The notes below the pieces were generated by a model. That model saw nothing but the letters and a program-made list of their open reading frames with translations. It was not told the DNA's origin and did no database searches. A stretch of 64,000 bases of DNA, from the NCBI RefSeq assembly GCF_013003965.1, contig NZ_CP053069.1:525419-589418 (forward strand), given 5' to 3'. This document shows positions 9,154 through 37,289 of the stretch, piece by piece. Both the position numbers and the translations under genes were made by a program. How positions within the stretch are numbered: the stretch's first letter is position 1; every line of letters starts with the position of its first letter. This DNA comes from Usitatibacter rugosus. GTDB lineage: Bacteria > Pseudomonadota > Gammaproteobacteria > Burkholderiales > Usitatibacteraceae.

Positions 9154-9504
9154 CTACGGATCGCCGCCGGCGCCGCCACCACTGTCGCCGCCACCGCCTC
9201 CGTCACCACCGCTCGCGCTTCCATCCTGCGCGTGATCGCCGGAGTGATCTCCATCTCCGATTCCCGGACCCGATGCCTGCGACCCGATGGCGATCTCGGC
9301 TGCGATATAGCCGATGAGCCCGCCGAGCCCGACCGATCCCAGCAAGGTGACGAGCGATCGCGTCATCGACCAATCGCTGAAATGCGGCCCGCCGATCATG
9401 GCGGCGGCAAGGCCTCCCACGAACAGCCCGCCCACGAGACCGATGCTGCGGTATCGCTCGACGATGGCGCTCGCTTCCCTGGGAGTGGTGTCGGTGGAGC
9501 TCAT
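9154..9504 (-). CDS. small membrane protein with Gly/Asp-rich C-terminal tail
   Basis: Two hydrophobic helices rich in Gly-zipper motifs. ATG overlaps the stop of the upstream gene (ATGA). Confidence 0.4.
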   Translation of the reverse strand: MSSTDTTPREASAIVERYRSIGLVGGLFVGGLAAAMIGGPHFSDWSMTRSLVTLLGSVGLGGLIGYIAAEIAIGSQASGPGIGDGDHSGDHAQDGSASGGDGGGGGDSGGGAGGDP

Positions 9505-10619
9505 CCTCTTGCCGGTTTCTCGGAGCGGGTCTTGTAGAACTTCAGGATAGCCTCCGCGGTGTCACTGACGAGATAGTCGGCCCAGAGGCCCGCGTACCAG
9601 TTGAAATTCGTCGTGATGCGCGTGCCGACCTTGATGGTGAGGCGTGTACCGCCGGCCTCCGGCGTCAGCGTGTAAGAAGTCTCCTCGAGATCGAAGTACT
9701 TCCCGCCGATGACGATGTGGTCGTCGAGCGAGCCGGGCGGAAATGAGTCCGGCCCGAACTTGTACACCCAGGCCACGCGCCGCTTCGGCTCCCACGCCGT
9801 GATCGTCTCCTCGAACGTCACGCCGCGCTCCCACTTGAGAGTGCGGGTGCCACCGACGCGTCCTTCGATCGTGCGTGCCTCGATCGGATAGGGAACGCCG
9901 ATCCGGTAAGCGAATCCTTCCGAGAGCTCGCTCGGCTGGATGTCGAGCGGGTAGTTGATGTGCTGCCACACGCTCTCGGGCTGCGCGGCGATGTGGACGC
10001 TGCGCGTGATCACCTGGTGCTCGGTGGGGCTCGGAAATTGGGCCTCCAGCGGACCACCTACCAGGGGTATCAGGAGAACTGCCGGAACCAGCTTCGAGCC
10101 GCGGCGCTTGGGCGGGGAGATGAAAGAGCCGACGATCGCGCCGATGATCCCCGCTACGAAGAAGAGCGGCGCGGCCATGACGATGCAGATGGAACCTTCG
10201 CGCAGGACGGCACCCGCCGTGAATACGAAGAGGGCGATGGAAAGGGTGGACAGCGCTCCCGTTCCGGCCACGCCTGCATTCGTGCGGCGCCTGGCGATGA
10301 ACCCCACGAGCACTCCGATGGCCAACGGGACGCCGACCAGGAACGATACGAGCATCAATCCGCTGGCGCTCGCCTCGCGAATCGAAAACACGTCCGCGAA
10401 AGTCTTGTAGGCCGCGACTCCATAGATCGCGCCGAGACCCAGGACGAGGAGGTACACGCCGATCATCATCAGCCCGCCGGCAATGTTCAGCGGCTTGGCG
10501 GTCTCGGGCTTCATGAGCACGGGCCGCCATTGGTCCCGTTCCTTGAAGTCCGCACCGCAGCCAGGACACTTGAACGCGTCCGGCGCGATCTCGCGAGCGC
10601 AGTTCGGGCAATAGGCCAT
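9501..10619 (-). CDS. zinc-ribbon / multi-TM / SRPBCC (polyketide-cyclase-like START/Bet v1 fold) fusion protein
   Basis: N-terminal YCPNCAREI...CPGCGADF, then about four TM helices, then a C-terminal roughly 150-aa SRPBCC-like domain (HIAAQPESVWQHI...WEPKRRVAWVYKF). ATG overlaps the upstream stop (TGATG). Confidence 0.55.
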   Translation of the reverse strand: MAYCPNCAREIAPDAFKCPGCGADFKERDQWRPVLMKPETAKPLNIAGGLMMIGVYLLVLGLGAIYGVAAYKTFADVFSIREASASGLMLVSFLVGVPLAIGVLVGFIARRRTNAGVAGTGALSTLSIALFVFTAGAVLREGSICIVMAAPLFFVAGIIGAIVGSFISPPKRRGSKLVPAVLLIPLVGGPLEAQFPSPTEHQVITRSVHIAAQPESVWQHINYPLDIQPSELSEGFAYRIGVPYPIEARTIEGRVGGTRTLKWERGVTFEETITAWEPKRRVAWVYKFGPDSFPPGSLDDHIVIGGKYFDLEETSYTLTPEAGGTRLTIKVGTRITTNFNWYAGLWADYLVSDTAEAILKFYKTRSEKPARG

Positions 10620-11290
10620 CAGGCCGTGGTCTTCGCGACCATCGCCTCTCTCGCAGCCGCCTCCGCCATGGGATTGAGCGTTGGCTCGCCGACCTTGCGC
10701 AGCGTGTTGCGGTCGGTGTGGTGGAAGGGTTCCGCCTGCCCCGGGATGATCAATATCGTGTCCAGCTCGTAGGACCACGTTCCATCCGGGTTGATCGTGA
10801 CCGTGACGGTGTAGCTGTCCGTTCGGAATGCATATTCGAGAAACGGATTCGACACGATGCCGTTCGTCGTGGACCCGCGCACTGCCTCGAGACGAAACGT
10901 CTTCGCATCCGCGGCCGCATGACCGACGGCCATCGCGACCTGCGCACGCGGGATCGAAAGCGTCTGGGTCACGGTGCCCGTCGCCGGCTCCCAGAGCCAG
11001 TAGCCCACCTGGTCGTGGAACGTCTCGACGTCGTTCGGCTTCACGATGCGCGTGTGATAGCGCAGCCCGTAGAAGAGTTGCGGCCCGTTGGTCTGCGCGT
11101 CGATCGGCTGCAGCTCCATGTGCTCGATGTACGCCTGCTTCTCGGGGCCGTCTTCCTTCGGGTTCACGTCGAGGCCGCGCGAACCGGCCCAGATGCCCGC
11201 CATCTTGGTGAGCGGTCCCAGGTTCGCGAGCGTGTTCGGGTCCGGCTCGGGCTCGGTGTAGATGTCCTTCGGATAGTTTTCCATGGTCAT
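10619..11290 (-). CDS. nitrobindin/THAP4-like haem-binding beta-barrel (DUF1794-like) protein
   Basis: GPLTKMAGIWAGSRG...YGLRYHTRI...VGYWLWEP pattern of the nitrobindin-type lipocalin-like barrel. Start taken at the ATGACC that overlaps the upstream stop (ATGA). Confidence 0.45.
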   Translation of the reverse strand: MTMENYPKDIYTEPEPDPNTLANLGPLTKMAGIWAGSRGLDVNPKEDGPEKQAYIEHMELQPIDAQTNGPQLFYGLRYHTRIVKPNDVETFHDQVGYWLWEPATGTVTQTLSIPRAQVAMAVGHAAADAKTFRLEAVRGSTTNGIVSNPFLEYAFRTDSYTVTVTINPDGTWSYELDTILIIPGQAEPFHHTDRNTLRKVGEPTLNPMAEAAAREAMVAKTTA

Positions 11291-15536: not shown

Positions 15537-15563
15537 GAATAAAGTGGTCTGACCCCTTTATTC
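15537..15563. repeat. single copy of the palindromic unit (GAATAAAGTGGTCTGACCCCTTTATTC)
   Basis: Same 25-bp unit as at 4210-4271. Lies in a divergent intergenic region. Confidence 0.8.
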
Positions 15564-15590
15564 ACGCCGGTACGCCCCCATGTCCCCCGG

Positions 15591-16682
15591 ATGATGACCG
15601 TCGTCCTCGCGTTCCTGCACGTCTATATCGGCCTGCGCCTCCTGGCCCCTTTCCCGCTTCCCGTGCAGATCGCCGGCTGGGCTGTCCTGGCGGCCGTCCT
15701 CTGGTTCCTGCCCCGGGGCTTTCGCTTCCGCGGCGACAGCCCGTGGCGGATCTTCCTGCCCTGGGTGATGACGGGCGTCTTTTCGTCGTTGCTGGTGCTC
15801 ACCTTTGTGCGCGACTTCGCGCTGATCGGCCTCGCCATCGCCAACGCCCGCCTGCACGACGCGTGGGTGCAGCCCTCGGCCATCCTCGTCGCGGCACTCG
15901 TTCCGGTGGTCACGCTGATCGGCTATGCCATGGCGCGTCGGACAGCCCGCGTGACGGACGTGAAGGTGCCGATCGCCAACCTCCCCGCGGCGCTCGAGGG
16001 CTTCACCATCGCGCAGATCAGCGACATCCACGTCGGGCCGACGATCAAGAAACCCTACGTCGATGCGATCGTCGACCGCGTGAACGGCCTCAAGGCCGAC
16101 ATGGTGGCGATCACCGGGGATCTCGTGGACGGCAGCGTCGGCGAGCTCGCGAAAGACACCGCCCCGCTCGGCCGCCTCGCATCGCGCCACGGCACGTACG
16201 TCGTCACCGGCAATCACGAGTACTACTCTGGAGCGCGCGCTTGGGTCGCGGAGCTGCGAAGGCTCGGCGCGCAGGTGCTGATGAACGAGCACGTGGTTCT
16301 GGAGCATGACGGTGCCCAGGTCACCGTGGCCGGCGTCACCGACTACTCCGCGCATCACTTCGATGCCACGCAGAAGAGCGATGCCGTCGCCGCGTTGGAC
16401 GGCGCACCGGAAGGCGCGCCGAAGGTGCTGCTCGCCCACCAACCGCGCTCGGCTGCCAATGCCGCGCAAGCCGGTGCCGATCTGCAACTGTCGGGCCACA
16501 CGCATGGGGGTCAGTTCTGGCCTTGGAATCTCTTCGTGCGCCTGCAGCAGCCGTTCACCGCGGGCCTGCACAAGCTCGGCAAGATGTGGGTGTACATCAA
16601 TCGGGGCACGGGCTACTGGGGGCCGCCGAATCGATTCGGCATTCCTTCGGAGATCACGCGCATCCGCCTCGTCCGCGCCTAG
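15591..16682 (+). CDS. membrane-anchored metallophosphoesterase (calcineurin-like)
   Basis: N-terminal TM helices. Motifs DIHVGP, GDLVDG, GNHEY, SGHTHGGQ. Confidence 0.8.
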   Translation: MMTVVLAFLHVYIGLRLLAPFPLPVQIAGWAVLAAVLWFLPRGFRFRGDSPWRIFLPWVMTGVFSSLLVLTFVRDFALIGLAIANARLHDAWVQPSAILVAALVPVVTLIGYAMARRTARVTDVKVPIANLPAALEGFTIAQISDIHVGPTIKKPYVDAIVDRVNGLKADMVAITGDLVDGSVGELAKDTAPLGRLASRHGTYVVTGNHEYYSGARAWVAELRRLGAQVLMNEHVVLEHDGAQVTVAGVTDYSAHHFDATQKSDAVAALDGAPEGAPKVLLAHQPRSAANAAQAGADLQLSGHTHGGQFWPWNLFVRLQQPFTAGLHKLGKMWVYINRGTGYWGPPNRFGIPSEITRIRLVRA

Positions 16683-17827
16683 AGCGGGAAGCCGGGGTCG
16701 GGCCACGTGCCCGGAGGCGCCACGCCCGCTTGCACGTATTTGCGCATCCCCGCATCGGTGAGCGCATAGCCCCAGTTGATGAGCTGACCCTGCTCCTTCG
16801 CCGAGAACTCGTTCAGTCGCGTGCGGATGTGCTGCAGCGCTCCTGAGGCGGCAGAGTCATGTGTCATCGGCGAGCCGGCCTGGTAGTTGTCGATCCGCGT
16901 CGTAATGCCCCAGTAGGTCCCCTTCTTCGTCGCGGGCCTCGTCGGGTTCTCGAGACCTTCCTCCTGCGTCTGCTTGAACTCCTGCATGAGCCACCGCTTG
17001 CGAAGCGCTCGAGTCTGGTCACTCACGATGTCGAGGACGCGGATCGCCTGGCGCGTCCAGTCCGTATGCGGTTCGGCTTCGGCATCGAGTGGCGCACCGG
17101 CATCGGAGACCAGCACCGTCGAGCAGCGCTTCCAGATCGCCTCCAGCCCCATGTTGTCGTAGACGCCGCCGTCCGTGAGCATGAGGCACTCCTTGAGGTC
17201 GTCTCGGCTGCCGAGCTTCGCGTTCGGGAACACCGTCCAGTCCGAAGGCTTGAACTCCAGCTCCACGGGTGAGAGCACCGGCGGAAACGCACTCGATGCC
17301 GCGACCACGCGCGCGACAGGGATGTACGGATTCTGGATCTCGCCGATCTTGTAGTCCGCGATCCGCTTCCTCTCCATGCGCACCGACGATCCGGTCTGCA
17401 GGCTCGTCGCGTAGAAGATGAAGCGCGGTGTCTTCCCCTTCTCGAACTCGGGGATCGACGCGAGCTTCGCGCCGTGGAAAAGACTCTCGTCGTATTTCTC
17501 GGTCACCTTGTCGGAGATCGTGCTGAAGACCGAGAGGAACCCCTCGATACCGGCAAAGACGTCGAGGGTCGTGCTCGCCATCTCACGCACGGGCTTGGCG
17601 ATCACAGGTGCGAAGTTCGTCGCCACGCCGCTGCTCGACCACTGAAGGTCCTTCCAGCGCGTCGCAAGCACGCCGTTCAGGATGGACCCGCCCGAGACGC
17701 TCGTGATGACGTCGATCTTTCGCAGCCAGCCGAGCTCGTTCAGGCGCCAGAGGCTGCCCAGGCTGAAGAGCATCGCGCGGTAGCCGCCGCCGGAGAGGGC
17801 GAGGCCGGTGTCGAGTGGGTCGGGCAT
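16679..17827 (-). CDS. patatin-like phospholipase
   Basis: Oxyanion-hole motif LSGGGYRAML. Ser motif ITSVSGGS. Catalytic Asp region LTDGGVYDNMG. Last gene of a three-gene operon. Confidence 0.8.
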   Translation of the reverse strand: MPDPLDTGLALSGGGYRAMLFSLGSLWRLNELGWLRKIDVITSVSGGSILNGVLATRWKDLQWSSSGVATNFAPVIAKPVREMASTTLDVFAGIEGFLSVFSTISDKVTEKYDESLFHGAKLASIPEFEKGKTPRFIFYATSLQTGSSVRMERKRIADYKIGEIQNPYIPVARVVAASSAFPPVLSPVELEFKPSDWTVFPNAKLGSRDDLKECLMLTDGGVYDNMGLEAIWKRCSTVLVSDAGAPLDAEAEPHTDWTRQAIRVLDIVSDQTRALRKRWLMQEFKQTQEEGLENPTRPATKKGTYWGITTRIDNYQAGSPMTHDSAASGALQHIRTRLNEFSAKEQGQLINWGYALTDAGMRKYVQAGVAPPGTWPDPGFPL

Positions 17828-17846
17828 GGGTGTATCTCCTCGGCGC

Positions 17847-19346
17847 TCAGCGCAGGAAGTAGTCGATGTATCCCGGGGTCGCGATCACCCCGGCCTGCAG
17901 GGCCTCGGCGCTCGGTTGCTCGTTCACGTCAGAGATGACGACGCGCTCTTTCGTCTTCGCCCGCAATGCGTTGAAGAGCGGCGTGGCGGGCATGTCCCAG
18001 CCCGTCTTGCCTTGCTTGCTGGCAGTCGCTTTGTCCAGGGGGATGAAGGCGACGAGGTTGTCCTTCGTCATGAGCTCGAGGCCGCCAGCCTTCAGCGTCG
18101 CGTTGTGGCTGCAGTGGTGCCCGACCTTGTAGAAGACCGTCCGGCCGAGCAGCTCGTGGGCCGGGCAGGGCGTCGTGCGATTCGGAACCTGGAAATTGAC
18201 GGTCGCCCACGATTGCCAGTTGCCTACTTGGGCATCGGCCGGGAAGAGCAGGATGTCACGCGTCTGGATGCATTCGATGGCGAGCACGAGACTCGTGTTG
18301 TTGGTGTCGTTGTCGAGGTCCAGGGCGAGCTGCCCGAAGGCGCTCAGCCAGTCCTCGTCGATTCGGCGCCATGCTTCGCTGGGCTTGTCGTAGGTCGCGT
18401 CGACGAACGGCTGGATCTCCGCGAAGTACGTCCTGGACTGGCCGGCCACCGGCCGCGCGATGCGATGCTCGGCGGCAAAGGGATGGCAGAGCTCGTCTCC
18501 TTCCCCTCCCGGCGCGACCGCGGCGCCCAGCGAGTCGAGGCCGGCCGTGCCCATGCGCGAGAGGTGGTAGATCACGTCGTCCTTCTTCATCTGCTGCGTG
18601 ATCGCACTGGTCTTGAGGAAGCGCGGGTCGCGCGGCGGCCCGAGCACGTAGAACCGGAATCCGGGCAGCTCCTTCTCGACGAACGGCTCACTACCCGGTT
18701 CGAGGAAGCGCAGGTCCTGCGCCTCCTTGCCGCGTAGCTTGAGGTACGCCACGGCGTCGGCGACCTTCTTCCCCTCGATGGAGTCGTCGTCGTTCGTGAA
18801 GCCAAGCAGCTCCGACACGCCGGCAAGAGGTGCGGCTCCGGCGAAGGAGCTGGAGAGGGCCATCTCGAGCTTCGCCTTGGCGACCTTCTTCGCCTCCTTC
18901 AGTTTCCGGGCGTCGGCTTGGGAGAGGTTCTCCGCCCAGCTCATCCACACGGCGCCGAAGTCGATGTCGTCGTTGAAGACCTTCCGCGCCTGGTTGAAGC
19001 CCGAGAGGTGATCCTTGTGCTCGTGTGTGCCGACCACGACGTCGAGGCGTGCGCGGTCCTGGCCGTCCTTCGCAGTGTCGCGGATGTGCTCGACCACGGC
19101 GGTCATCGCCTTCGCGTCGCGTGCGAGCGCCCCGCAGTCGATCAGCATCTGGAAGGGCACCCTGCCCGGGCGCGGGAACGTGAGCAGGAAGCAGTCGCCC
19201 AGCCCGTGCCGGTACATGCGCACGCGTGCACGGTAGCTTTGAGGCGTGCCGGGTGCCTTGATCGGACCCAGCGAGCCCGCCGGTGCTGCCAGCTTCTTCT
19301 TGGTGGTGATGCGCTTCTTCGAGGTGGGCTTCCGCTGGGTGGCCAT
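17847..19346 (-). CDS. MBL-fold metallo-hydrolase with a Lys-rich N-terminus
   Basis: HxHxDH motif (GTHEHKDHLSG) and downstream YKVGHHCSHN. N-terminus MATQRKPTSKKRITTKKK is basic. Start 8 nt after the stop of the upstream gene. Confidence 0.75.
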   Translation of the reverse strand: MATQRKPTSKKRITTKKKLAAPAGSLGPIKAPGTPQSYRARVRMYRHGLGDCFLLTFPRPGRVPFQMLIDCGALARDAKAMTAVVEHIRDTAKDGQDRARLDVVVGTHEHKDHLSGFNQARKVFNDDIDFGAVWMSWAENLSQADARKLKEAKKVAKAKLEMALSSSFAGAAPLAGVSELLGFTNDDDSIEGKKVADAVAYLKLRGKEAQDLRFLEPGSEPFVEKELPGFRFYVLGPPRDPRFLKTSAITQQMKKDDVIYHLSRMGTAGLDSLGAAVAPGGEGDELCHPFAAEHRIARPVAGQSRTYFAEIQPFVDATYDKPSEAWRRIDEDWLSAFGQLALDLDNDTNNTSLVLAIECIQTRDILLFPADAQVGNWQSWATVNFQVPNRTTPCPAHELLGRTVFYKVGHHCSHNATLKAGGLELMTKDNLVAFIPLDKATASKQGKTGWDMPATPLFNALRAKTKERVVISDVNEQPSAEALQAGVIATPGYIDYFLR

Positions 19347-19354
19347 GGTCGTCC

Positions 19355-21307
19355 TTACGCGGAGATGTTGTGGAGGGCGGCAAACGGTTCCTTGCCTTCT
19401 CCGTAGTACGTGACTGCGAGCGGACTGTTCTCCATCGCCTCCTTGAACTTGATGTTGCGAAGGAGCCGCGCCTTGTCGTGCAGGCCCTTGCCGATCACGT
19501 AGGTCACCTTCGATTCGTCGAGGTCGATGACGAGCGTGCTCCCGCACCGGATCGTGTGGCTCTGGCCTTCGTGCTCCATCGTCTCGGTCTGCAGGATGGT
19601 CACGAAGACCTGGTTCAGGGCGCGGCCGTCCTCGCGCGCGCGCCGCGCTTCGCGGAGGCTCCGCACTGAAAAGACCGGCATGCCATTGCGGCGGACCCTC
19701 ACGCCTTCGGGCGCCTGGTATTCCGCCAGCGCCAATCCTGTGAGGCGTTGCAGCAACTCGGCCTTGACCACGGCGTTCTGGATGAAATTGTGAAGGTCGA
19801 TCCGGATCTGCCGCGTTTCTTTCCAGATCTCCTTGCGCGTCTTGAGGTAACGCAGCTTGTCCACGTGAGTACGCAGCTTGATGTCGTTGATGAAGCGCGC
19901 GAGCATTCCCTCGACCTCCCCAGGCTCCCGCTCCGGATCCTCCCCGGGTCGCGCCCAGCGCAAACTGTCCTCGGAGAGTGTGCGGATGTCCTCGGGGTAG
20001 ATGCCACGCCGGCGGAACGCCTCGATGAATGCCACGCGATAGCCACGCTGGTCTTCGGGGTAGAGATCCATGTCCGCAGTGACGAGGGCGCGGAGGTACT
20101 CGCCGAACGTGAGGTCCACGGGCGGACAGTAGTCGAGCGCACGGATACACATGTTGAGGACGTGGCTGGCGGCCATGGCGGCTTCGTCGGCGAGTCGGTT
20201 CACGAGATCGGGGTGGAGGTCACCCTGTTGCAGTACGCCTGTGCCTCCAGAAGCGAGTCGCACAAGGTCGCGCGTGCGGCCTTTGTAGATCGCCAGGAAA
20301 GCATCGAAGATCGCCGCGACCAGGATGGCGCCGCGCTCGTGGACCTCCAGCGTATCGTCGAGCTCCGTGGGGTCGGGGACATGCCGTACCCATTTCTTGT
20401 CGGCATCGAAGCGGCCGATGGCATCGCGCAGCGCCCCGTGCGTTCCGCGCGCGAGCCCGAACTGCGCTGCAAGCTGGGCGAGGAGGTTGTCGCTTTCGAG
20501 GTTTCCGCGCGTCTTGGCGATCTGATGCGCGATGATCTCGGGGAAGGTGAAGTGCTGGAAGAGCGCGACGAGGTCTGCGAAGGCCTCGTGGAAGGCGAGC
20601 ACGTCCGGGTTCGTCGCTTCCAGGAAATACTCATGGAATCCGTCCAGCAGCGCGTGCGTCGTTTCGTGCGCAACGATGTCGTGCGAAAGGCACGTGAACA
20701 CCATGCCTCGCGGAAACTGCCCCGTGCTGCGGTCCTCGGTCGCCGGGAAGTAGCCGCACAGGATCGAGAACTTGCCGCGGCTGTAGTACGCATTGGCCAT
20801 GCGCATCGCGTGCGGGTAGATGCGTAGCCGGCGGACGAACTGCTCGTCATCGCTGAGATGCGTTCCTTTCTCGAAGCGGTCCGCCCAGAAGGCCTTGCGG
20901 CCAAGTGCGCGTTCAAAGTGATCGATTGTCGTCATTGCCACCGCGTAGACCATCTGCTGGTGGAACTGGGGATTCCCCTCGGAGGGGCCGTAGCCGTCTT
21001 CAGCCAGGACGAAAGGATGATCGAGGTCCACCGGTGCATAGAAGCATTGGCTTGCGGGATCGTAGTCGACGACCTCGACGTACTCGCCGATCGGTCCGCG
21101 TTCGAGCTTCTCCCACGGCACGCGGTAGGTGATCTCGCTGACCACGGCGGTATCGAGGCTGGTGGCGAGGCTCGGGTCGAACGCATAGCCGCGCAGCGCG
21201 CGATGCGTCGGCTGCTGGGGCTGCGACGCCATGTGGCGCGGCGCCTTGGCCGGGCCCGACCAGGCCACCTGGACGACATTGCGATTCGCGGGTTTGCGGT
21301 TTGCCAT
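19355..21307 (-). CDS. thermolysin-motif (HExxH ... EAxxD gluzincin) metallopeptidase-like protein with no signal peptide
   Basis: IVAHETTHALLDGFHEY followed 19 aa later by HEAFADLVA (thermolysin-type third ligand spacing). 650 aa. N-terminus not signal-like. Confidence 0.6.
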   Translation of the reverse strand: MANRKPANRNVVQVAWSGPAKAPRHMASQPQQPTHRALRGYAFDPSLATSLDTAVVSEITYRVPWEKLERGPIGEYVEVVDYDPASQCFYAPVDLDHPFVLAEDGYGPSEGNPQFHQQMVYAVAMTTIDHFERALGRKAFWADRFEKGTHLSDDEQFVRRLRIYPHAMRMANAYYSRGKFSILCGYFPATEDRSTGQFPRGMVFTCLSHDIVAHETTHALLDGFHEYFLEATNPDVLAFHEAFADLVALFQHFTFPEIIAHQIAKTRGNLESDNLLAQLAAQFGLARGTHGALRDAIGRFDADKKWVRHVPDPTELDDTLEVHERGAILVAAIFDAFLAIYKGRTRDLVRLASGGTGVLQQGDLHPDLVNRLADEAAMAASHVLNMCIRALDYCPPVDLTFGEYLRALVTADMDLYPEDQRGYRVAFIEAFRRRGIYPEDIRTLSEDSLRWARPGEDPEREPGEVEGMLARFINDIKLRTHVDKLRYLKTRKEIWKETRQIRIDLHNFIQNAVVKAELLQRLTGLALAEYQAPEGVRVRRNGMPVFSVRSLREARRAREDGRALNQVFVTILQTETMEHEGQSHTIRCGSTLVIDLDESKVTYVIGKGLHDKARLLRNIKFKEAMENSPLAVTYYGEGKEPFAALHNISA

Positions 21308-21465
21308 CGGCTTCCCTTTCTAATTGTTCTTGTTAGCGCGCCATCTTTGCGCCGGGATGTTCCAGGGAATACGGCAATTCCGGCGGGCACGAACGGGAAA
21401 ATTCACACCGCGTGCAGAGATGGCCGGCCTAGGATTGACGGCGTCGCGCACCTGGGAGGTCAAAA

Positions 21466-23673
21466 ATGAAAAGAAGCTCGACGCTGGCGCTATTGCTCTG
21501 CCTTTCGCTGTCCACGGCAAATGCAGCCGATGCCGTGCCCGTCGTTCAGGCCACGCCACATCTCGCAAGCCAGGCCCGCGAGAACCTCAAGGCAGATCCC
21601 TTCCTCTTCGAGGATGTGATCATGAAGGCGGGGGCAGCCGCCTTCCAGTCCAGCTGCGAGGAAATCAAGAAGACAAAATCGGATTTCGATTGCGCACCCG
21701 GCAAGCTGGGTGCGGGATCCAACCGTACGGGAGAGGACCAGAAAGCCCAGGTCGATGCTCGAGTCTGGCAGGCGCAGTTCATGTCCCTCCTGTCGGCGGA
21801 GCGACTCGAGCGTCTGTTGGGCCCCTATCAAGCGGCGCTGAACGACCGATACAAGTTCTGCGGGAATACGCGCCCGCAGATCCACACCATCGGCTTCCAG
21901 CCGGAGCTGGTGTTCGAGGCGAGGAGCGATTCTCGCCCGACGAGCGCTGGCGAACGCGCGGTGCGTATTCCCATCGATGGCTTTGCCCTCGATCCGCGTT
22001 GCGTCGTGATGGGAATCCAGATCTCGGGCACGGTGCCCGTCTCGCGATATGGCAGTCGCACCGAGCGCAGCGAAAAAGAAAAAAACTCGGACTTCTATGT
22101 CACCGAACCCACGCCCGATCGGCCGGACACGGCCAATGTCATTCTGCTGGAGCCGTATCTCGATCGACTCAAGACGGGCGACATGCTGACGATCTCGGTG
22201 AGCTTCAGCGAGCGATACCCTCCGGATGAAAAGAAACCGCGGAAGGTTGCCTACTCCAAGCGCGCCTTCACCTTGTTCGAGATTGGTGACTACCGCCAGG
22301 TCTACCAGAAGGATCGGATCGGTCCCCATAGCGCATTTCCGCTTACCGAAGAGGAAATCGACAGCCTCTACGGGCCGCTCATCGCCAAGAACTACTTCGC
22401 CGTGCGGATCTCCATTCGCAACCCCGGAGCCACGGCGAAGCTTGTCAGCAGCGGAGGGATTCGGGTCACGGGAACGGCCCGCGTCGAACCGGAGCCGGGC
22501 TCCGGTGAGCCGCCGTTCGCCATGCCACTCACGCTCGTTCCCCACAGCCTCCAGGAGATCTATTCGATCCTCCAGGACCAGGAGGTTGACCAGGTGCGGC
22601 CCCGGACCTTCCGGGCGCTCGAGCTCGTGGGTGCGCTCGCAACCGGCATCGCCGCGATTACTTCTCCGGGCATCCAGACGACGAAGAACCTCGGTCTCTT
22701 CACCGGGCTGGTAATCCCCGAAACGAAAAGGGCCTGGCCGGATCGCTGGCCGGGCTACCAGAAGAACCTGGTGCGCGACGCGATGCCCGACCTCATCAAG
22801 GTGGGCCCGAATTCGAGGACGGAACAGCCGAAGGTCCTCTTCTTCCCGAAAAAGGACATCGACGGCATGGTGTCGGATCCGTACCTCTTCGGTCGGATCA
22901 GCGGTAGCGATACTCCCGATGGCGATATCCGCAACGCGAAGCCGAAGACATACGTTATAGCGGTGAGCTTCGACAACCTTTCGATCCGGCTCGAAGACCT
23001 TTTCGAGGTGGAGAATCCGGCCATTCGCGACAAGTACCTCGATCTCCTGGGCGAGGTCCCCGCGTTGATCGGAAAGCTCGAGCTCCTACGCCCTTGGTCG
23101 ACGCAAGCGACCGGCGCGAAGCTGTTCGATCTTCCGAGCGGCACCTGGAATGATGCGCAGACCGCGTTGACGGAAGCGGCGAAGAGCGTGACAGCCCATG
23201 CCGACGCGACGACCAAGGCGGATCTCGATGGCAATGTCATCAAGCCCCTGAAGCTGCTCGTCGATGGAGTCAAGCCTGGCGACGCGAAATCGAAGCTGAA
23301 AGCGGATCTGTTCGGCAACGGCAAGGCGGGCGTCGAGGCGCTCAAGCAGGCGCGGGAGACCCTCGAGGGCGTGCGCTCGCGACTCAACACCGAGGGCGAT
23401 CCGTCGGCGTACAAGCCGCGCGTCGACGAGGCGGGTGCTACGGCTACCGCGGCCAAGAATGCGCTGGCCTACTACCAGCTGGTGTCCAAGGCCGTGGCGG
23501 ATTCCGTGCAGCCTCTCAAGGATCTCGACGCGGCGCTGAAGGTGTTGAAGGCGAAGCCGGCAGATGCGGCCGCGAAGACTGCCCTGGACGGCGCGGCGAC
23601 GAATCTGAAGGGCATCCTCAAGAACGTCGCCGACAACAAGCCCGCCGAAGGAATCTCCCTGGCGCTCCAATAG
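21466..23673 (+). CDS. large secreted hypothetical protein (735 aa) with a helical Lys/Ala-rich C-terminus
   Basis: Signal peptide MKRSSTLALLLCLSLSTANA. No recognisable catalytic motif. Lower GC and atypical codons. Divergent from the peptidase operon. Confidence 0.55.
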   Translation: MKRSSTLALLLCLSLSTANAADAVPVVQATPHLASQARENLKADPFLFEDVIMKAGAAAFQSSCEEIKKTKSDFDCAPGKLGAGSNRTGEDQKAQVDARVWQAQFMSLLSAERLERLLGPYQAALNDRYKFCGNTRPQIHTIGFQPELVFEARSDSRPTSAGERAVRIPIDGFALDPRCVVMGIQISGTVPVSRYGSRTERSEKEKNSDFYVTEPTPDRPDTANVILLEPYLDRLKTGDMLTISVSFSERYPPDEKKPRKVAYSKRAFTLFEIGDYRQVYQKDRIGPHSAFPLTEEEIDSLYGPLIAKNYFAVRISIRNPGATAKLVSSGGIRVTGTARVEPEPGSGEPPFAMPLTLVPHSLQEIYSILQDQEVDQVRPRTFRALELVGALATGIAAITSPGIQTTKNLGLFTGLVIPETKRAWPDRWPGYQKNLVRDAMPDLIKVGPNSRTEQPKVLFFPKKDIDGMVSDPYLFGRISGSDTPDGDIRNAKPKTYVIAVSFDNLSIRLEDLFEVENPAIRDKYLDLLGEVPALIGKLELLRPWSTQATGAKLFDLPSGTWNDAQTALTEAAKSVTAHADATTKADLDGNVIKPLKLLVDGVKPGDAKSKLKADLFGNGKAGVEALKQARETLEGVRSRLNTEGDPSAYKPRVDEAGATATAAKNALAYYQLVSKAVADSVQPLKDLDAALKVLKAKPADAAAKTALDGAATNLKGILKNVADNKPAEGISLALQ

Positions 23674-30453: not shown

Positions 30454-30530
30454 GCCCCGCTGGCGGAATCGGCATACGCGCTGGTCTCAGGAACCAGTCC
30501 TTCCGGGTTCGAATCCCGGGCGGGGTACCA
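30454..30530 (+). tRNA. tRNA-Leu(CAG)-like, non-canonical: class I length (77 nt) with a 5-nt variable loop instead of the long Leu variable arm
   Basis: Hand-folded cloverleaf: acceptor GCCCCGC/GCGGGGT, Leu-type D-arm GGCGGAATCGGCATACGCG, anticodon loop CTCAGGA, T-arm CCGGG-TTCGAAT-CCCGG, A73, encoded CCA. Confidence 0.5.
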
Positions 30531-30536
30531 ATCAAC

Positions 30537-30614
30537 ACCCTTGTAGCTCAGCGGATCGAGAGCGCCTGGCTACGAACCAGGAGGACGGGAGTTCGATTCT
30601 CTCCGAGGGTGCCA
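30537..30614 (+). tRNA. tRNA-Arg(ACG)
   Basis: Acceptor ACCCTTG/CGAGGGT (A1:U72, one G-U). D-arm GCTC-AGCGGATCGA-GAGC. Anticodon arm CCTGG-CTACGAA-CCAGG. T-arm GGGAG-TTCGATT-CTCTC. G73 and CCA. Confidence 0.65.
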
Positions 30615-30615
30615 T

Positions 30616-30691
30616 GCCTTCCTAGCTGGTCTGGTGACAGCGCCGCGCCGAAATCGCGGAGAGCTCCGCTCGAAACGGAGGGGAGGCACCA
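30616..30691 (+). tRNA. tRNA-Phe(GAA)-like, non-canonical (C33, T-loop CTCGAAA); starts 2 nt after the Arg tRNA
   Basis: Full cloverleaf: acceptor GCCTTCC/GGGAGGC, D-arm GCTG-GTCTGGTGA-CAGC, anticodon arm CCGCG-CCGAAAT-CGCGG, 4-nt variable, T-arm CTCCG-CTCGAAA-CGGAG, A73 and CCA. Confidence 0.45.
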
Positions 30692-30760
30692 CGTTGTCGG
30701 ACATGCAACTTCATGCACTTAAGTCCATTAAGTCCATGAAGCTGCATCTCGGAAGTCCAC

Positions 30761-30834
30761 GGTGATCTTGGTGTAGCGACAGCACATCGCGCTGTGAACG
30801 CGAAAGGTCCGGTTCGATTCCGGCGATCACCCCA
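30761..30834 (+). tRNA. tRNA-His(GTG) with encoded G-1, C73 and CCA; T-stem slightly irregular
   Basis: G-1 then GTGATCT..GATCAC, C, CCA. Anticodon loop CTGTGAA. T-loop TTCGATT. Confidence 0.55.
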
Positions 30835-30991
30835 CTCACGTACAGCAGGGACCACATCCGCATGCGCCTCGAAAGAGGCACACCAGATTCGTCTGGAACG
30901 CATCGCAGAGGGCGAGGCTCGTGAGTCCTCCCTGGCGCGCTCGCCCGAAGTCGGAGGGGCGCGTACCGCGGTACGGGAAGGACGGATACAG

Positions 30992-31065
30992 GGCGACCTA
31001 GCTCAGCTTGGGAGAGCGCCGGCGAAAGCCGGAGGTCGTGGGTTCGAATCCCATTGTCGCCACCA
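30992..31065 (+). tRNA. tRNA-Ala-like cloverleaf whose anticodon loop is replaced by a GAAA tetraloop (74 nt, no anticodon)
   Basis: Acceptor GGCGACC/TGTCGCC, A73, CCA. Ala-type D-arm TAGCTCAGCTTGGGAGAGC. Anticodon arm CCGGC-GAAA-GCCGG. T-arm GTGGG-TTCGAAT-CCCAT. Confidence 0.45.
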
Positions 31066-31136
31066 TTGCATAGCTCAGTCTGGAAGAGCGATCGGCTGAT
31101 AACCGACTGTCGCGGGTTCGACTCCCGCTGCAAACC
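31064..31136 (+). tRNA. tRNA-Ile(GAT)-like with a defective acceptor stem; overlaps the CCA of the upstream tRNA-like; no encoded CCA
   Basis: D-arm GCTC-AGTCTGGAA-GAGC. Anticodon arm ATCGG-CTGATAA-CCGAC. T-arm GCGGG-TTCGACT-CCCGC. Acceptor has only 5 bp (TTGCA/TGCAA). Confidence 0.4.
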
Positions 31137-33661: not shown

Positions 33662-35764
33662 ATGCGCCGCTCGCCTTTTCCCCTTGTCGTTCTCTCCGCG
33701 CTGTTCGCGCACTCCGCCTTCGCGCAGCAATCCCCGCCGAAGGAGCAAACGCTCCCCGAAGTGAAGGTCACCGCCGCCGTCGAGGAGACCGCGACCGGTC
33801 CCGTCGGCGGCTATAACGCGAAGCGCTCCTCCACCGCGACCAAGACCGACACGCCGCTTGCCGAGACGCCGCAGTCCGTGACGGTGGTCACGCGCGAGCG
33901 CATCGAGGAGATGGGCGCGACCAACCTGCAGGACGCGCTCAACTACGCCGCGGGCGTGCGCCCCGACGCGTTCGGCGTGGACTCCCGCTCCGACGGCGTC
34001 CTCGTGCGTGGTGGCTACCCCGACGAATATCGCGACGGGCTTCGACGTCTCTTCGGCTACTACACCAGCACGGCTCGCGTCGATCCTTACGCCCTCGAGC
34101 GCATCGAGGTGCTTCGCGGGCCTTCGGCGATGCTCTACGGCCAGGGCACGACGGCCGGCATCATCAACATGGTGTCGAAGCGCCCACTCGCCGAGAATTT
34201 CCGCGAGATCGGCGTGCAGTACGGCACGTGGGACCGCAAGCAGGTCATGGCCGATCTCACCGGCCCGCTCACGAGCGACGGCAAGTGGCTCTACCGCATC
34301 ACGGGCCTGCTGCGCGAATCCGACACGCAGGTCGACTACGTGCCGGACGACCGCAAGATGATCGCCCCGGCGCTCACGTGGAAGCCGAACAGCGACTTCA
34401 CGATCACCTTCCTCGCGAACTGGCAGAAGGACGAGACCGGCTCCACGCTGCAGTTCTTCCCGTGGCAGGCGGTGCGCGGGCCGAACCCCAACGGCCAGGT
34501 GCCGACCAGCCGCTTCATCGGCGAGCCGGGCTTCGACCGCTACGACACCGAGCGCTCCGAGGCGGGCTGGACGCTCGACTACAAGCTCAATCGCGACTGG
34601 ACGTTCCACCAGACGGCGCGCTACTCGCGGAACGAAAACGAGTACTTCACGCTGTACTCGGACTCGTTCACCTCGCCCGGCAACGTGTTCCTCGATCCCG
34701 CGCAGCGCGTGATCGACCGCTTCGGCGAGGGCACGATCCGCAAGAACAGCCTGGTCGCCGCGGACCAGAACCTCGAGGGCAAGATCCGCCACGGCATCTT
34801 CCAGCACACACTGCTGGCCGGCGTCGATGCGCTGCGCTTCCGCGAGGAGTCGAAGAGTGCCTCGAACTACCCGCCCGTCTACGGCGGCACGGTCCCGCCG
34901 ATCGACATCTACAACCCCATCTACACGGGCTTCGACGTCGGGCCGCTCGCCGACCTGCCGAAGACGAAGATGCGTTCCATCGGCGTCTACCTGCAGGACC
35001 AGGTGAAGATCGACAAGCACTGGATCGTCGTGGCCGGCGTTCGCCACGACGAGGTGACGAGCTCCGTCGAGGGCCTGGACGACGACAAGGACGACGCGAC
35101 CACCTACCGTGCGGGCCTCATGTACCTCACCGACTCGGGCTGGTCGCCCTACGTGAGCTACAGCGAGTCGTTCACGCCGATGGCCGGCATCAACACCACG
35201 ACGCTTGATCGCTTCAAGCCGTTGCGCGGCGAGCAATACGAGGTCGGCGTGAAGTTCCAGCCCGCCAACGCGCCGTACAGCTTCACGGCCGCCGCGTACA
35301 ACCTCAAGGAAGAGAACCGCGTCCTCGAGCTGACGCCGGGTGTCGTCACGCAGGTCGGCGAGACGAAGACCAAGGGCGTCGAGCTCGAGCTGGCCGGGCG
35401 CATCCTCTCCGCCCTCGACGTCGTCGTGAACTACAACTGGATCGACAACGACGAGCAGCTCGACACGCTGCCGAAGAACCAGTTCTCCGCATGGGGCACG
35501 TATCGCTTCACCGGCGGCATGAAGGGGCTCTCGGCCGGCCTCGGCGTGCGCTACCTTTCGAGCTTCAAGGACAAGAGCGCGCCGGTGACGCCGTCGAACA
35601 CGCTGGTGGACGCGATGATCGCGTGGGACACGGGTCCTTGGCGCTTCGCGATCAACGGGCAGAACCTCGCCGACAAGATCTACGCGAGCACCTGCCTCGA
35701 CCGCGGCGATTGCTTCTACGGAGCGCGGCGCACGATCGTGGGCAGCGTCTTCTACCGCTTCTGA
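33662..35764 (+). CDS. TonB-dependent outer-membrane siderophore-type receptor
   Basis: Signal peptide. TonB-box-like ETATGPV. Plug domain. Beta-barrel motifs. C-terminal YRF. Confidence 0.85.
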   Translation: MRRSPFPLVVLSALFAHSAFAQQSPPKEQTLPEVKVTAAVEETATGPVGGYNAKRSSTATKTDTPLAETPQSVTVVTRERIEEMGATNLQDALNYAAGVRPDAFGVDSRSDGVLVRGGYPDEYRDGLRRLFGYYTSTARVDPYALERIEVLRGPSAMLYGQGTTAGIINMVSKRPLAENFREIGVQYGTWDRKQVMADLTGPLTSDGKWLYRITGLLRESDTQVDYVPDDRKMIAPALTWKPNSDFTITFLANWQKDETGSTLQFFPWQAVRGPNPNGQVPTSRFIGEPGFDRYDTERSEAGWTLDYKLNRDWTFHQTARYSRNENEYFTLYSDSFTSPGNVFLDPAQRVIDRFGEGTIRKNSLVAADQNLEGKIRHGIFQHTLLAGVDALRFREESKSASNYPPVYGGTVPPIDIYNPIYTGFDVGPLADLPKTKMRSIGVYLQDQVKIDKHWIVVAGVRHDEVTSSVEGLDDDKDDATTYRAGLMYLTDSGWSPYVSYSESFTPMAGINTTTLDRFKPLRGEQYEVGVKFQPANAPYSFTAAAYNLKEENRVLELTPGVVTQVGETKTKGVELELAGRILSALDVVVNYNWIDNDEQLDTLPKNQFSAWGTYRFTGGMKGLSAGLGVRYLSSFKDKSAPVTPSNTLVDAMIAWDTGPWRFAINGQNLADKIYASTCLDRGDCFYGARRTIVGSVFYRF

Positions 35765-35765
35765 T

Positions 35766-37253
35766 TCACCAGCGGCAGTTGCCCTCGCCGAACTCGTTGG
35801 CGATCAGGGGGACGACGGCGGCAAGGCCCAGGCCCGCCCACGCCGTGCGGCAGTCGGGCTTGCGCGCGTTCTCGATCGCGATCTGCTCCTTCGTCTTGCG
35901 CTCGGGCGGCGGCGGCATCGGGAAGGGCATGATCGCGCGGTTGCCGCTGCCTTCGCGTGCCATCTCACGCGCGCGCCGCAACGCGGAATCTCGATCGAGG
36001 CCGGGCTTGGAGCTGAACGGATCGTAGTCGGAGGTCGGCTCCGGCGGCGCGATGCCGGGACGATCGCGCGGATTGAACGGCATCGGAGGCGCGGGTGGAG
36101 GAATGCCCGTCGGGCCGCTGCGTTCCGGCGTTCGTGCATCCGGGCGCTCGGTTGTCGTGGGCGTGGGCGACGTCGGTGCGCGGCTCGGTGCAGCCGTCGG
36201 TGCCGGTGTGTCGCGAATCTCCGGCGGTGCGGCGAGATCGCGTGACCGCTGCGTGCTGTCGCCGCGCGTGCGATCCGACGGCGGCACCTGCACGGGCACC
36301 GGGACCGCGGGCACTTCGACCGGCTTCGCTTCCACCGGCGGCGTGACGAATCGCTCGATCACCGGCGCGGGCACGGCAGGCATCGACACCGGCGGAATCT
36401 CCACGGGCCTGATGTCGACGGGCGGCGCGGGTGCGGGCATGGGCGGCGGCGCCTTCGGTGCGACGAGCGGTGCGGCAACCGCAGGCGCTTCAACCGGCGC
36501 GCGGTCGATGCGCGGCGGCGTCGCGCGCTCGAGCGCCGCGGGCGCAGACGGAATGGGAATGGGCGGTGCCGGAATCACGGGCGCGGGGGGCGGAGGCTCG
36601 GGCGGCGCCGGCACGACGGGTACTGGCACCGGCGGAGCTTCAGGCGGTGGTGTTGGCGAAACGGGCAGCGTGATCGGCGCCGGCGGCGGCGGAGGCTGAA
36701 GCAGCTCTGGTCGTCGTTCCGGCACGACAACGCGATCCATCAACGGCGGAATCACGACCGGCGTCTCCACCTTCGCGGGCTCGGTGCGTTGCGGCGCGGG
36801 CGGCGTCTCCGGTGGAGGTGCGGGCGCGGGTGCCGGCGGCGGAGGGGGTGCGGCAATCTCCGGAGCGGGACGAACCTCCTCCTGCGGAGCGCTCACGGGC
36901 GGTGCGACCGGGGAGATGGCGGGCTCCGGCGCGGCGGCGGGCTTCGGAGGTGCGGGACGCGGTGCGGGCGCGGGCCTCGCACCGGGCGTGAGGTACGTGT
37001 CGCGAAGCGAACGATCGGGCTTCAGTGCGGGCGGGGCCGGCGTGAACGCCTCGCGAATCACGACATCGAGCGAGCCCCAGATCGCGCGGCCCTGCGGGCT
37101 GCCGCCACTCGGCGCCCCGAACAGGAGGATCGCCATCGTGTGCAGCAGCATCGAGAGGATGATGAATTCCCCGAGCGGCGCCGGCTCGATGGAGCGCCAC
37201 GGGCCCCGCGAGCGCGGGCCGAAGGGGGAACGGAATGAGTCGGTGAAGGCCAA
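35766..37253 (-). CDS. proline-rich membrane-anchored protein (TonB-like architecture but lacks a recognisable TonB C-terminal domain)
   Basis: N-terminal TM helix EFIILSMLLHTMAILLF. Long PAPxPP low-complexity region. Convergent with the receptor gene. Could be partly an artefact of GC-rich sequence. Confidence 0.4.
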   Translation of the reverse strand: MAFTDSFRSPFGPRSRGPWRSIEPAPLGEFIILSMLLHTMAILLFGAPSGGSPQGRAIWGSLDVVIREAFTPAPPALKPDRSLRDTYLTPGARPAPAPRPAPPKPAAAPEPAISPVAPPVSAPQEEVRPAPEIAAPPPPPAPAPAPPPETPPAPQRTEPAKVETPVVIPPLMDRVVVPERRPELLQPPPPPAPITLPVSPTPPPEAPPVPVPVVPAPPEPPPPAPVIPAPPIPIPSAPAALERATPPRIDRAPVEAPAVAAPLVAPKAPPPMPAPAPPVDIRPVEIPPVSMPAVPAPVIERFVTPPVEAKPVEVPAVPVPVQVPPSDRTRGDSTQRSRDLAAPPEIRDTPAPTAAPSRAPTSPTPTTTERPDARTPERSGPTGIPPPAPPMPFNPRDRPGIAPPEPTSDYDPFSSKPGLDRDSALRRAREMAREGSGNRAIMPFPMPPPPERKTKEQIAIENARKPDCRTAWAGLGLAAVVPLIANEFGEGNCRW

Positions 37254-37289
37254 GGGTGCCGGGTCGGGTGCTCTCCCGGCATTTTACGG

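Follow-up and report, generated by a model that had tools for sequence, protein, structure and literature searches.

Usitatibacter rugosus carries, on the minus strand of a 64,000-nucleotide stretch of its genome (the window; NZ_CP053069.1, positions 525,419 to 589,418), three closely spaced genes whose products we call A, B and C: a predicted cytoplasmic zinc metallopeptidase of the thermolysin fold, a hydrolase of the metallo-beta-lactamase (MBL) fold and a patatin-like phospholipase. The conserved unit is the A-B pair and not the A-B-C trio. We propose that this pair, with or without a lipase, is a candidate defence module in which known enzyme folds are brought together in an undescribed combination, and we give about an even chance (roughly 0.5) to the reading that it is an undescribed conflict system, anti-phage or anti-plasmid, of the abortive-infection type. 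The proposal follows from a patchy, transfer-driven distribution, with carriage on plasmids and embedding in defence islands where islands exist; from a strictly conserved enzymatic core combined with interchangeable, non-homologous destructive partners; from the hypervariable domain on an otherwise invariant protease, together with the affinity of B to defence MBLs; and from the cytoplasmic nature of enzymes that have kept their catalytic residues and would be able to destroy protein, nucleic acid and membrane.

In about 77 of 83 independent loci (~93%) the gene that directly follows A is B; the exceptions are mostly contig ends. A recurrence of this order puts the arrangement far beyond chance. 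The gap between the two genes is typically -8 to +30 nt, and the pairwise identities of A and B co-vary (r ~0.74). The sequence-only reading of the window had treated all three genes as one set. In other genomes A and B do essentially always occur together, whereas a patatin gene adjoins them, upstream or downstream, in only 18 of 97 other loci (~19%); none of the remaining window neighbours recurs beside the module in the fetched loci. The family of A is large, with more than 8,000 close homologs and 4,021 clusters at 50% identity in an exhaustive search of representatives, and when one genome per species was scanned, A was present in at least 573 species, from at least 14 phyla. The top 120 homologs are 69-89% identical across Betaproteobacteria, Acidobacteriota, Chloroflexota and Planctomycetota. 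In four loci of Acidobacteriota/Thermoanaerobaculia (L020, L024, L026 and L031) a Zn_peptidase_2 gene (PF04298) lies upstream of the module and a DUF2007 gene downstream; these two, and PhoD neighbours, were set aside as local synteny and not parts of the module, since they recur only among close Acidobacteriota.

Around this core the partners are exchanged. In place of the patatin, 6 of the 97 loci have a Tle1-like/DUF2235 alpha/beta-hydrolase (PF09994; Pfam 1e-67 to 1e-77) and one has a phospholipase D (PLD)-like gene. In all, roughly one locus in four has a lipase-type gene adjoining A-B on one side or the other, and most of these genes share the strand of the pair and lie within 400 nt of it. 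A second kind of partner is fused to A itself: among 148 representatives of the family clusters, 89 consist of A alone, 49 (about one third) begin with a subtilase domain (Pfam S8, 2.5e-27), and the other 10 are tandem A'-A proteins. One protein of 1498 residues (P0475) is a three-part fusion of an S8 subtilase, A and a glycerophosphodiester phosphodiesterase domain, the last being related to lipid headgroups. Family members of about 900 residues were considered as patatin-A fusions and rejected, as they are truncated S8-A proteins. In Variovorax saccharolyticus (L085, 6970-16505) a patatin, a tandem A'-A (1198 residues), an MBL protein (460 residues), an A (671 residues) and a second MBL protein (480 residues) follow one another, which makes two modules back to back in one operon-like run.

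On plasmids the module often lies among defence genes. A clear association with defence is seen in 8-9 of the 15 contexts that were annotated, for the most part plasmids. On a Rhizobium leguminosarum plasmid (L087) the module lies between a cyclic oligonucleotide-based anti-phage signalling system (CBASS) and Hachiman (DUF1837 and helicase), and on a R. rhizogenes plasmid (L090) it lies between Abi, CBASS/SAVED and ImmA-helix-turn-helix genes and an AAA+HNH pair; in both cases the neighbouring CBASS has its own effector. The module is adjoined by Hachiman and a restriction endonuclease in Agrobacterium tumefaciens (L093), by two SIR2 genes and an AAA/exonuclease pair in Methylobacterium extorquens CM4 (L089), by DUF4238 and an integrase in Deinococcus (L091), by ATPase+S8 and ThiF genes in Hymenobacter (L096), by two CHAT proteins in Bradyrhizobium (L098) and by TIR-AAA_35/WD40 genes in a metagenome-assembled genome (MAG) of Anaerolineales (L003). 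Septu-like genes are also found among the plasmid neighbours.

The mobility of the module could also mean that it serves the element that carries it and not the host, through plasmid addiction, exclusion or anti-defence. A is found on 55 plasmid records, 34 of them conjugative, and is common on the conjugative plasmids of rhizobia and agrobacteria; integrases, insertion sequences and Tn3 lie beside several copies, and a 9.5-kb contig from human faeces, deposited as 'UNVERIFIED: Bacteriophage sp.' (MT836994.1; L094, 3653-6602), carries the pair with an A of divergent C-terminal domain. However, the phage origin of this contig is doubtful and it is the single record with the pair among 50,697 phage records; in the species sample the majority of copies lie on chromosomes, surrounded by housekeeping genes and with no adjacent mobility genes, and no antitoxin-like small gene is conserved. 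We therefore regard service to the mobile element as a long shot.

In protein A, the metal ligands and catalytic residues H214, E215, H218, E241 and D245 are invariant in alignments of 79 and 92 sequences. The sequence-only reading was right in recognising a thermolysin-type zinc site in a 650-residue protein with no signal peptide; the spacing of 19 residues that it gave is that between HExxH and the glutamate in thermolysin, and in A this spacing is 22 residues. A has no match in Pfam, where no propeptide domain (FTP/PepSY) was found either, and none among the NCBIfam 2026 models. Single-sequence and profile searches against the PDB sequences returned non-significant matches, though these were placed on the right motifs: the family profile aligns, non-significantly, to the thermolysin-like 1npc over HExxH...E and to ECE-1 over the NAYY strand. 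A first AlphaFold2 model, for which the alignment was shallow (all sequences at least 69% identical), was unusable (predicted local distance difference test score, pLDDT, 57). Rebuilding it with an alignment enriched in distant (tandem) relatives through a profile search gave a pLDDT of 80.2 and a predicted template modelling score of 0.87. The rebuilt model has the two lobes of the thermolysin fold, and vibriolysin is its top Foldseek match (probability 1.0). Among the tandem relatives, P0297 passes the Pfam Peptidase_M4 models (PF01447/PF02868) with 26.7 against 22.4 bits, and P0318 comes near with 20.9. Because the structural match, the motif-placed profile alignments and the tandem relatives at the Pfam threshold agree, the model identifies A as a cytoplasmic gluzincin of the thermolysin fold whose active site is complete and whose sequence family has no Pfam model.

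Like the M4-like gluzincins of clan MA, A combines HExxH with a third-ligand glutamate in an ExxxD helix. In contrast to the thermolysin-like metallopeptidases of MEROPS families M4 and M36 (fungalysin), with which it shares only 11-18% identity and whose Peptidase_M4 model it does not match above the gathering score, A has an extra variable C-terminal domain of about 200 residues and is constantly paired with an MBL gene; being cytoplasmic, with neither signal peptide nor FTP/PepSY propeptide, it also lacks the hallmark of a secreted M4 zymogen. The division between the two parts of the protein is sharp. Over residues ~26-450 pairwise identity is 0.5-0.8 per 25-residue block (79 sequences, many phyla), and at about residue 450 it falls abruptly, to 0.16-0.45 over residues 451-650; many relatives align over residues ~30-455 only. 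The C-terminal domain is predicted to be a helical bundle with a five-stranded sheet, for which the PDB holds no sequence relative and no significant structural relative, with weak hints of an NTF2-like fold. In the tandem A'-A proteins (~1200 residues; P0241-P0360) the second copy always has HExxH, and the first has HQxxH, HDxxH or HSxxH in some members. This pattern of a degenerate first copy and an always intact second suggests a pseudo-dimer with one dead protomer, in which case single-copy A may act as a dimer.

For B, the expectation of a 500-residue MBL-fold protein with HEHKDH and a basic N terminus was borne out: the protein has 499 residues, and its first 40 contain 10 K/R and no D/E. 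Downstream of the HxHxDH motif it has the Asp/His metal ligands of the superfamily (D371, H410/H411), and in the C-terminal half N349, N350, D371, H410, H411 and S413 are invariant among B homologs. The basic tail is kept in 111 homologs, with a median length of 43 residues, 26% K+R and a net charge of +10. The matches to Pfam Lactamase_B and Lactamase_B_2 are sub-threshold (18.8 against 27 and 14.6 against 22.7 bits), and a paralogous B partner in the V. saccharolyticus locus passes Lactamase_B with 35.6 against 22.7 bits. The best hidden Markov model matches of B are to defence MBLs, namely Lamassu LmuA (3.5e-9), AVAST Avs1a and the reverse transcriptase-associated RTasMBL of defence-associated reverse transcriptase systems (3e-4) in PADLOC, and 6A-MBL (1.6e-7) and Avs1a in NCBIfam, the Avs1a match standing at 1.3e-4. 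These matches cover the N-terminal ~115 residues only (motifs I-II) and are far below cut-off (30.8 against 220 and 20.9 against 420 bits), and the module, unlike the systems concerned, has no SMC-like LmuB, STAND NTPase or reverse transcriptase.

A family profile of B gave weak matches in the PDB to Apyc1, CPSF, RNase J and ComEC. The ComEC-family protein YcaI of Escherichia coli carries the same motif pattern as the C-terminal half of B (GNNHSCVV, LLTGD and VPHHGS in YcaI); B and the ComEC/Rec2 MBL nuclease domain share HxHxDH, NNxSxV, (T/P)GD and HH(G/x)S. The similarity is statistically weak outside motif 2: hhalign aligned the N-terminal block alone of B with YcaI (40% probability, E 2.9e-4), and a phmmer search of the C-terminal half against the PDB for likeness to ComEC found nothing. 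B further differs from ComEC in being soluble, with no competence membrane domain, and in having an insertion of about 170 residues and the basic tail. Judged by these motifs, B is probably a ComEC-like MBL-fold hydrolase and a nuclease.

The third gene had been called a patatin-like phospholipase, and this call stands: C matches PF01734 above threshold (5.6e-15; 56.5 against 27.7 bits) and has the catalytic motifs of a patatin, with GGGYR at residue 13 (oxyanion hole), SVSGG around 45 (nucleophile serine) and DGG at 219 (aspartate). Patatins and Tle1-like alpha/beta-hydrolases are also used as membrane-destroying enzymes by CBASS, as CapV, and by type VI secretion systems (T6SS), as Tle1. Tle1-like, patatin and PLD-like proteins are in fact the classic T6SS lipase effector families, and A, B and C, like T6SS cargo, have no Sec signals. 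The three proteins could therefore be an exported toxin set, inter-bacterial or anti-eukaryotic, in which protease, nuclease and lipase are delivered by a T6SS or another contact-dependent route. We consider this very unlikely. VgrG, PAAR, Hcp, immunity and secretion genes are not recurrent beside the module, and none is present in the 15 annotated contexts or, for VgrG, PAAR, Hcp and immunity genes, among the immediate neighbours, although a T6SS lipase locus would be linked to VgrG, PAAR or Hcp and to an immunity gene. No candidate immunity gene is conserved, and the part that is strictly kept is the protease with the MBL protein, not the lipase. The pair is also found in Chloroflexota, Deinococcus, Actinobacteria-like MAGs and Cyanobacteria, groups which to our knowledge are generally without T6SS.

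We infer a defence function for the module, and with it a sensing component, substrates and an order of activation. A horizontally mobile core of A and B, to which lineages add a phospholipase-type enzyme (C in the window) and/or a subtilase fused to A, would stay inactive in the cytoplasm until a trigger is detected, either by the variable C-terminal domain of A or by the variable insert of B. Detection would activate the A protease, which would take apart the infected cell's protein, nucleic acid and membrane, whether on its own or through the licensing of B and the lipase. A more specific form of this proposal is a proteolytic executioner cascade, in which A senses the invader via its C-terminal domain and licenses the nuclease and the phospholipase or fused subtilase, giving a caspase-like demolition that dispenses with known sensor NTPases and nucleotide signals; it would be a new and very widespread family of abortive-infection systems. 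We hold this specific form to be doubtful.

Several points weigh against a defence function. In an unbiased chromosomal sample of 80 GTDB species, the longest open reading frames (ORFs) next to the module, taken from 78 and 71 loci, are mostly housekeeping genes, i.e. transporters, dehydrogenases, peptidases and penicillin-binding proteins or cell-wall enzymes. The association with defence genes is weak in this sample: only about 10% of the chromosomal neighbours match PADLOC (MADS, Mokosh, PtuA, methyltransferase, kinases), a figure that has no background rate for comparison. In the window itself the module has cupin, SnoaL, metallophosphoesterase and M20 genes as neighbours. With a mean pairwise identity of ~66%, the catalytic core of A is unusually conserved for an immune gene, the module includes no NTPase or other classical sensor, and the substrate of B is read purely from motif-level likeness to ComEC. 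The earlier guess of toxin or abortive-infection-type effectors fits the plasmid contexts; given the chromosomal neighbours, the defence reading is plausible and not established.

Some of these observations would suit an accessory module for turnover or repair inside the cell that plays no part in conflict. It might recycle protein, nucleic acid and membrane during starvation, or repair DNA-protein crosslinks with a protease and an MBL nuclease that binds DNA through its basic tail. The strong conservation of the A core and the basic tail on B are in keeping with such a role, as are the housekeeping neighbours, which include several peptidases (M1 twice, M3, M19 and M29, with M20 in the window). 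It accounts poorly, however, for a patchy distribution driven by transfer, in which nearly identical copies turn up in different phyla and on conjugative plasmids, for the position of the module inside defence islands on plasmids and for the hypervariable C-terminal domain of A; and a repair pathway has no need of swaps among unrelated lipases or of subtilase fusions. On balance we find turnover or repair unlikely.

If the module is a conflict system, it is one that differs from those described. PADLOC 2023 (PADLOC-DB 2.0) has no match for A or for C, its patatin models included, and gives only weak partial matches for B; the operon in the window has no SMC, STAND, reverse transcriptase or cyclase gene, so that the defining partners of the modelled defence systems are absent; and a literature search found no description of the A-B pair. 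The earlier statement that the trio matches no described pathway or defence system is upheld by these results together with the lack of an NCBIfam match for A. In contrast to CBASS, the operon has neither a CD-NTase cyclase nor a second-messenger receptor and consists of A, B and C only. For the mechanism proposed for A there is a precedent in Lit, a zinc metalloprotease encoded by the e14 element of E. coli. This cytoplasmic enzyme with HExxH stays latent until a phage product triggers it and then cuts a conserved host target, leading to abortive infection. The likeness is to the proposed mechanism; a relation in sequence or fold was neither looked for nor found, and Lit acts alone, with no MBL or lipase partners. 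The use of a cytoplasmic subtilase as a defence component is likewise known from IetAS, a pair of an ATPase and an S8 subtilase, and recalls the N-terminal S8 domain of one third of the A family; unlike IetAS, the module has no ATPase partner, and A of the window has no S8 domain.

The coordinates of the genes and their features are collected in Table 1. The three ORFs lie exactly where the sequence-only reading had put them, with gaps of 8 nt (A-B) and 19 nt (B-C), and a plausible ribosome-binding site precedes each. The mechanical ORF of B extends further upstream, and we place its start at an ATG with a GGA(C)G box, 8 nt past the stop of A; C starts 19 nt past the stop of B, with GGAG ahead of its ATG. 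All three proteins lack a signal peptide and contain no transmembrane or hydrophobic N-terminal stretch. A scan for a sigma-70 consensus upstream of A found no match, and the promoter of A was therefore not located; a terminator scan likewise gave nothing useful.

Table 1. Genes of the A-B-C operon of U. rugosus and their conserved features, in window coordinates.
Feature	Coordinates	Strand	Remarks
Gene A, predicted cytoplasmic thermolysin-fold zinc metallopeptidase	19355..21307	-	650 residues; 100% identity to U. rugosus DSM104443_00553
A residues ~30-450, highly conserved peptidase core	19958..21220	-	NAYY edge strand at 172, HETTH, EAFAD, invariant H323
A zinc-binding/catalytic motif HETTH-x22-EAFAD	20573..20668	-	HETTH 214-218, EAFAD 241-245
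A residues 451-650, fast-evolving C-terminal helical and beta-sheet domain	19358..19957	-	Candidate sensor/regulatory domain
Gene B, MBL-fold metallo-hydrolase, probable ComEC-like subtype	17847..19346	-	499 residues; ~170-residue insertion; 100% identity to DSM104443_00552
B N-terminal basic disordered tail	19224..19346	-	41 residues, 10 K/R, 0 D/E; ends in conserved APGTPxxYRAR
B MBL motif 2, HEHKDH	19008..19025	-	Residues 108-113; H110, D112, H113 invariant, H108 nearly (75 sequences)
B C-terminal ComEC-type motifs TNNTSLVL, FP(G/A)DAQ, KVGHHxSHNAT	18096..18305	-	Residues ~348-417; N349, N350, D371, H410, H411, S413 invariant
Gene C, patatin-like phospholipase	16679..17827	-	382 residues; Pfam PF01734; accessory component of module
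Divergent intergenic region upstream of A, presumed promoter region	21308..21465	.	AGGGAAG ribosome-binding site before ATG

The surroundings of the operon in the window contribute little to the module. The stretch of 11.3-24.5 kb, which had been described as a lower-GC accessory region, is lower in GC only slightly (0.636 against 0.658 for the whole window) and has no bearing on the module. The divergent protein of 735 residues (21466-23673, plus strand), described earlier as secreted, has a clear signal peptide (MKRSSTLALLLCLSLSTANA) and matches nothing in Pfam, PADLOC or NCBIfam; it is absent beside the module in every other genome locus compared. Both this protein and a '382-aa' ORF were rejected as parts of the module, since neither ever co-occurs with A. 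The latter, a minus-strand ORF at 15558-16706, is the shadow of a real plus-strand gene (15591-16682) for a membrane-anchored calcineurin-like metallophosphoesterase (Pfam 1.3e-13), convergent with C and overlapping its stop by 4 nt. Metallophosphoesterase genes also lie near the module in the V. saccharolyticus and M. extorquens loci, which is probably a coincidence.

Further away, a minus-strand ORF of 425 residues (9501-10778) has N-terminal zinc-ribbon and C-terminal SRPBCC/polyketide-cyclase-like matches, all below Pfam thresholds. Six tRNA genes lie within ~700 bp at 30454-31136 (Leu-CAG, Arg-ACG, Phe-GAA, His-GTG, an aberrant call whose anticodon has 2 nt and which runs into the next gene, and Ile-GAT), in a stretch of lower GC (~0.62 at 29-32 kb); the array may mark a tRNA island or the border of a mobile element. 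The region 35000-38000 stands out from the remainder of the window by its distinctly higher GC (0.71) and its strong positive GC skew.

As a family, A-B is large, widespread and unstudied, and A has no Pfam family and no PADLOC or NCBIfam model. The pair is missing from the toolkits of the usual screening hosts, which would explain why systematic defence screens have overlooked it. If its role in defence is true, a thermolysin-fold protease would join the repertoire of immune proteases, the family would be an example of a single core that accepts several unrelated lipase-type enzymes, and the idea of cell suicide by several effectors under the licence of a protease could be tested in a tractable system. 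Should the pair have no role in defence, a thermolysin-like cytoplasmic protease kept at ~70% identity across phyla would still imply a conserved intracellular substrate.

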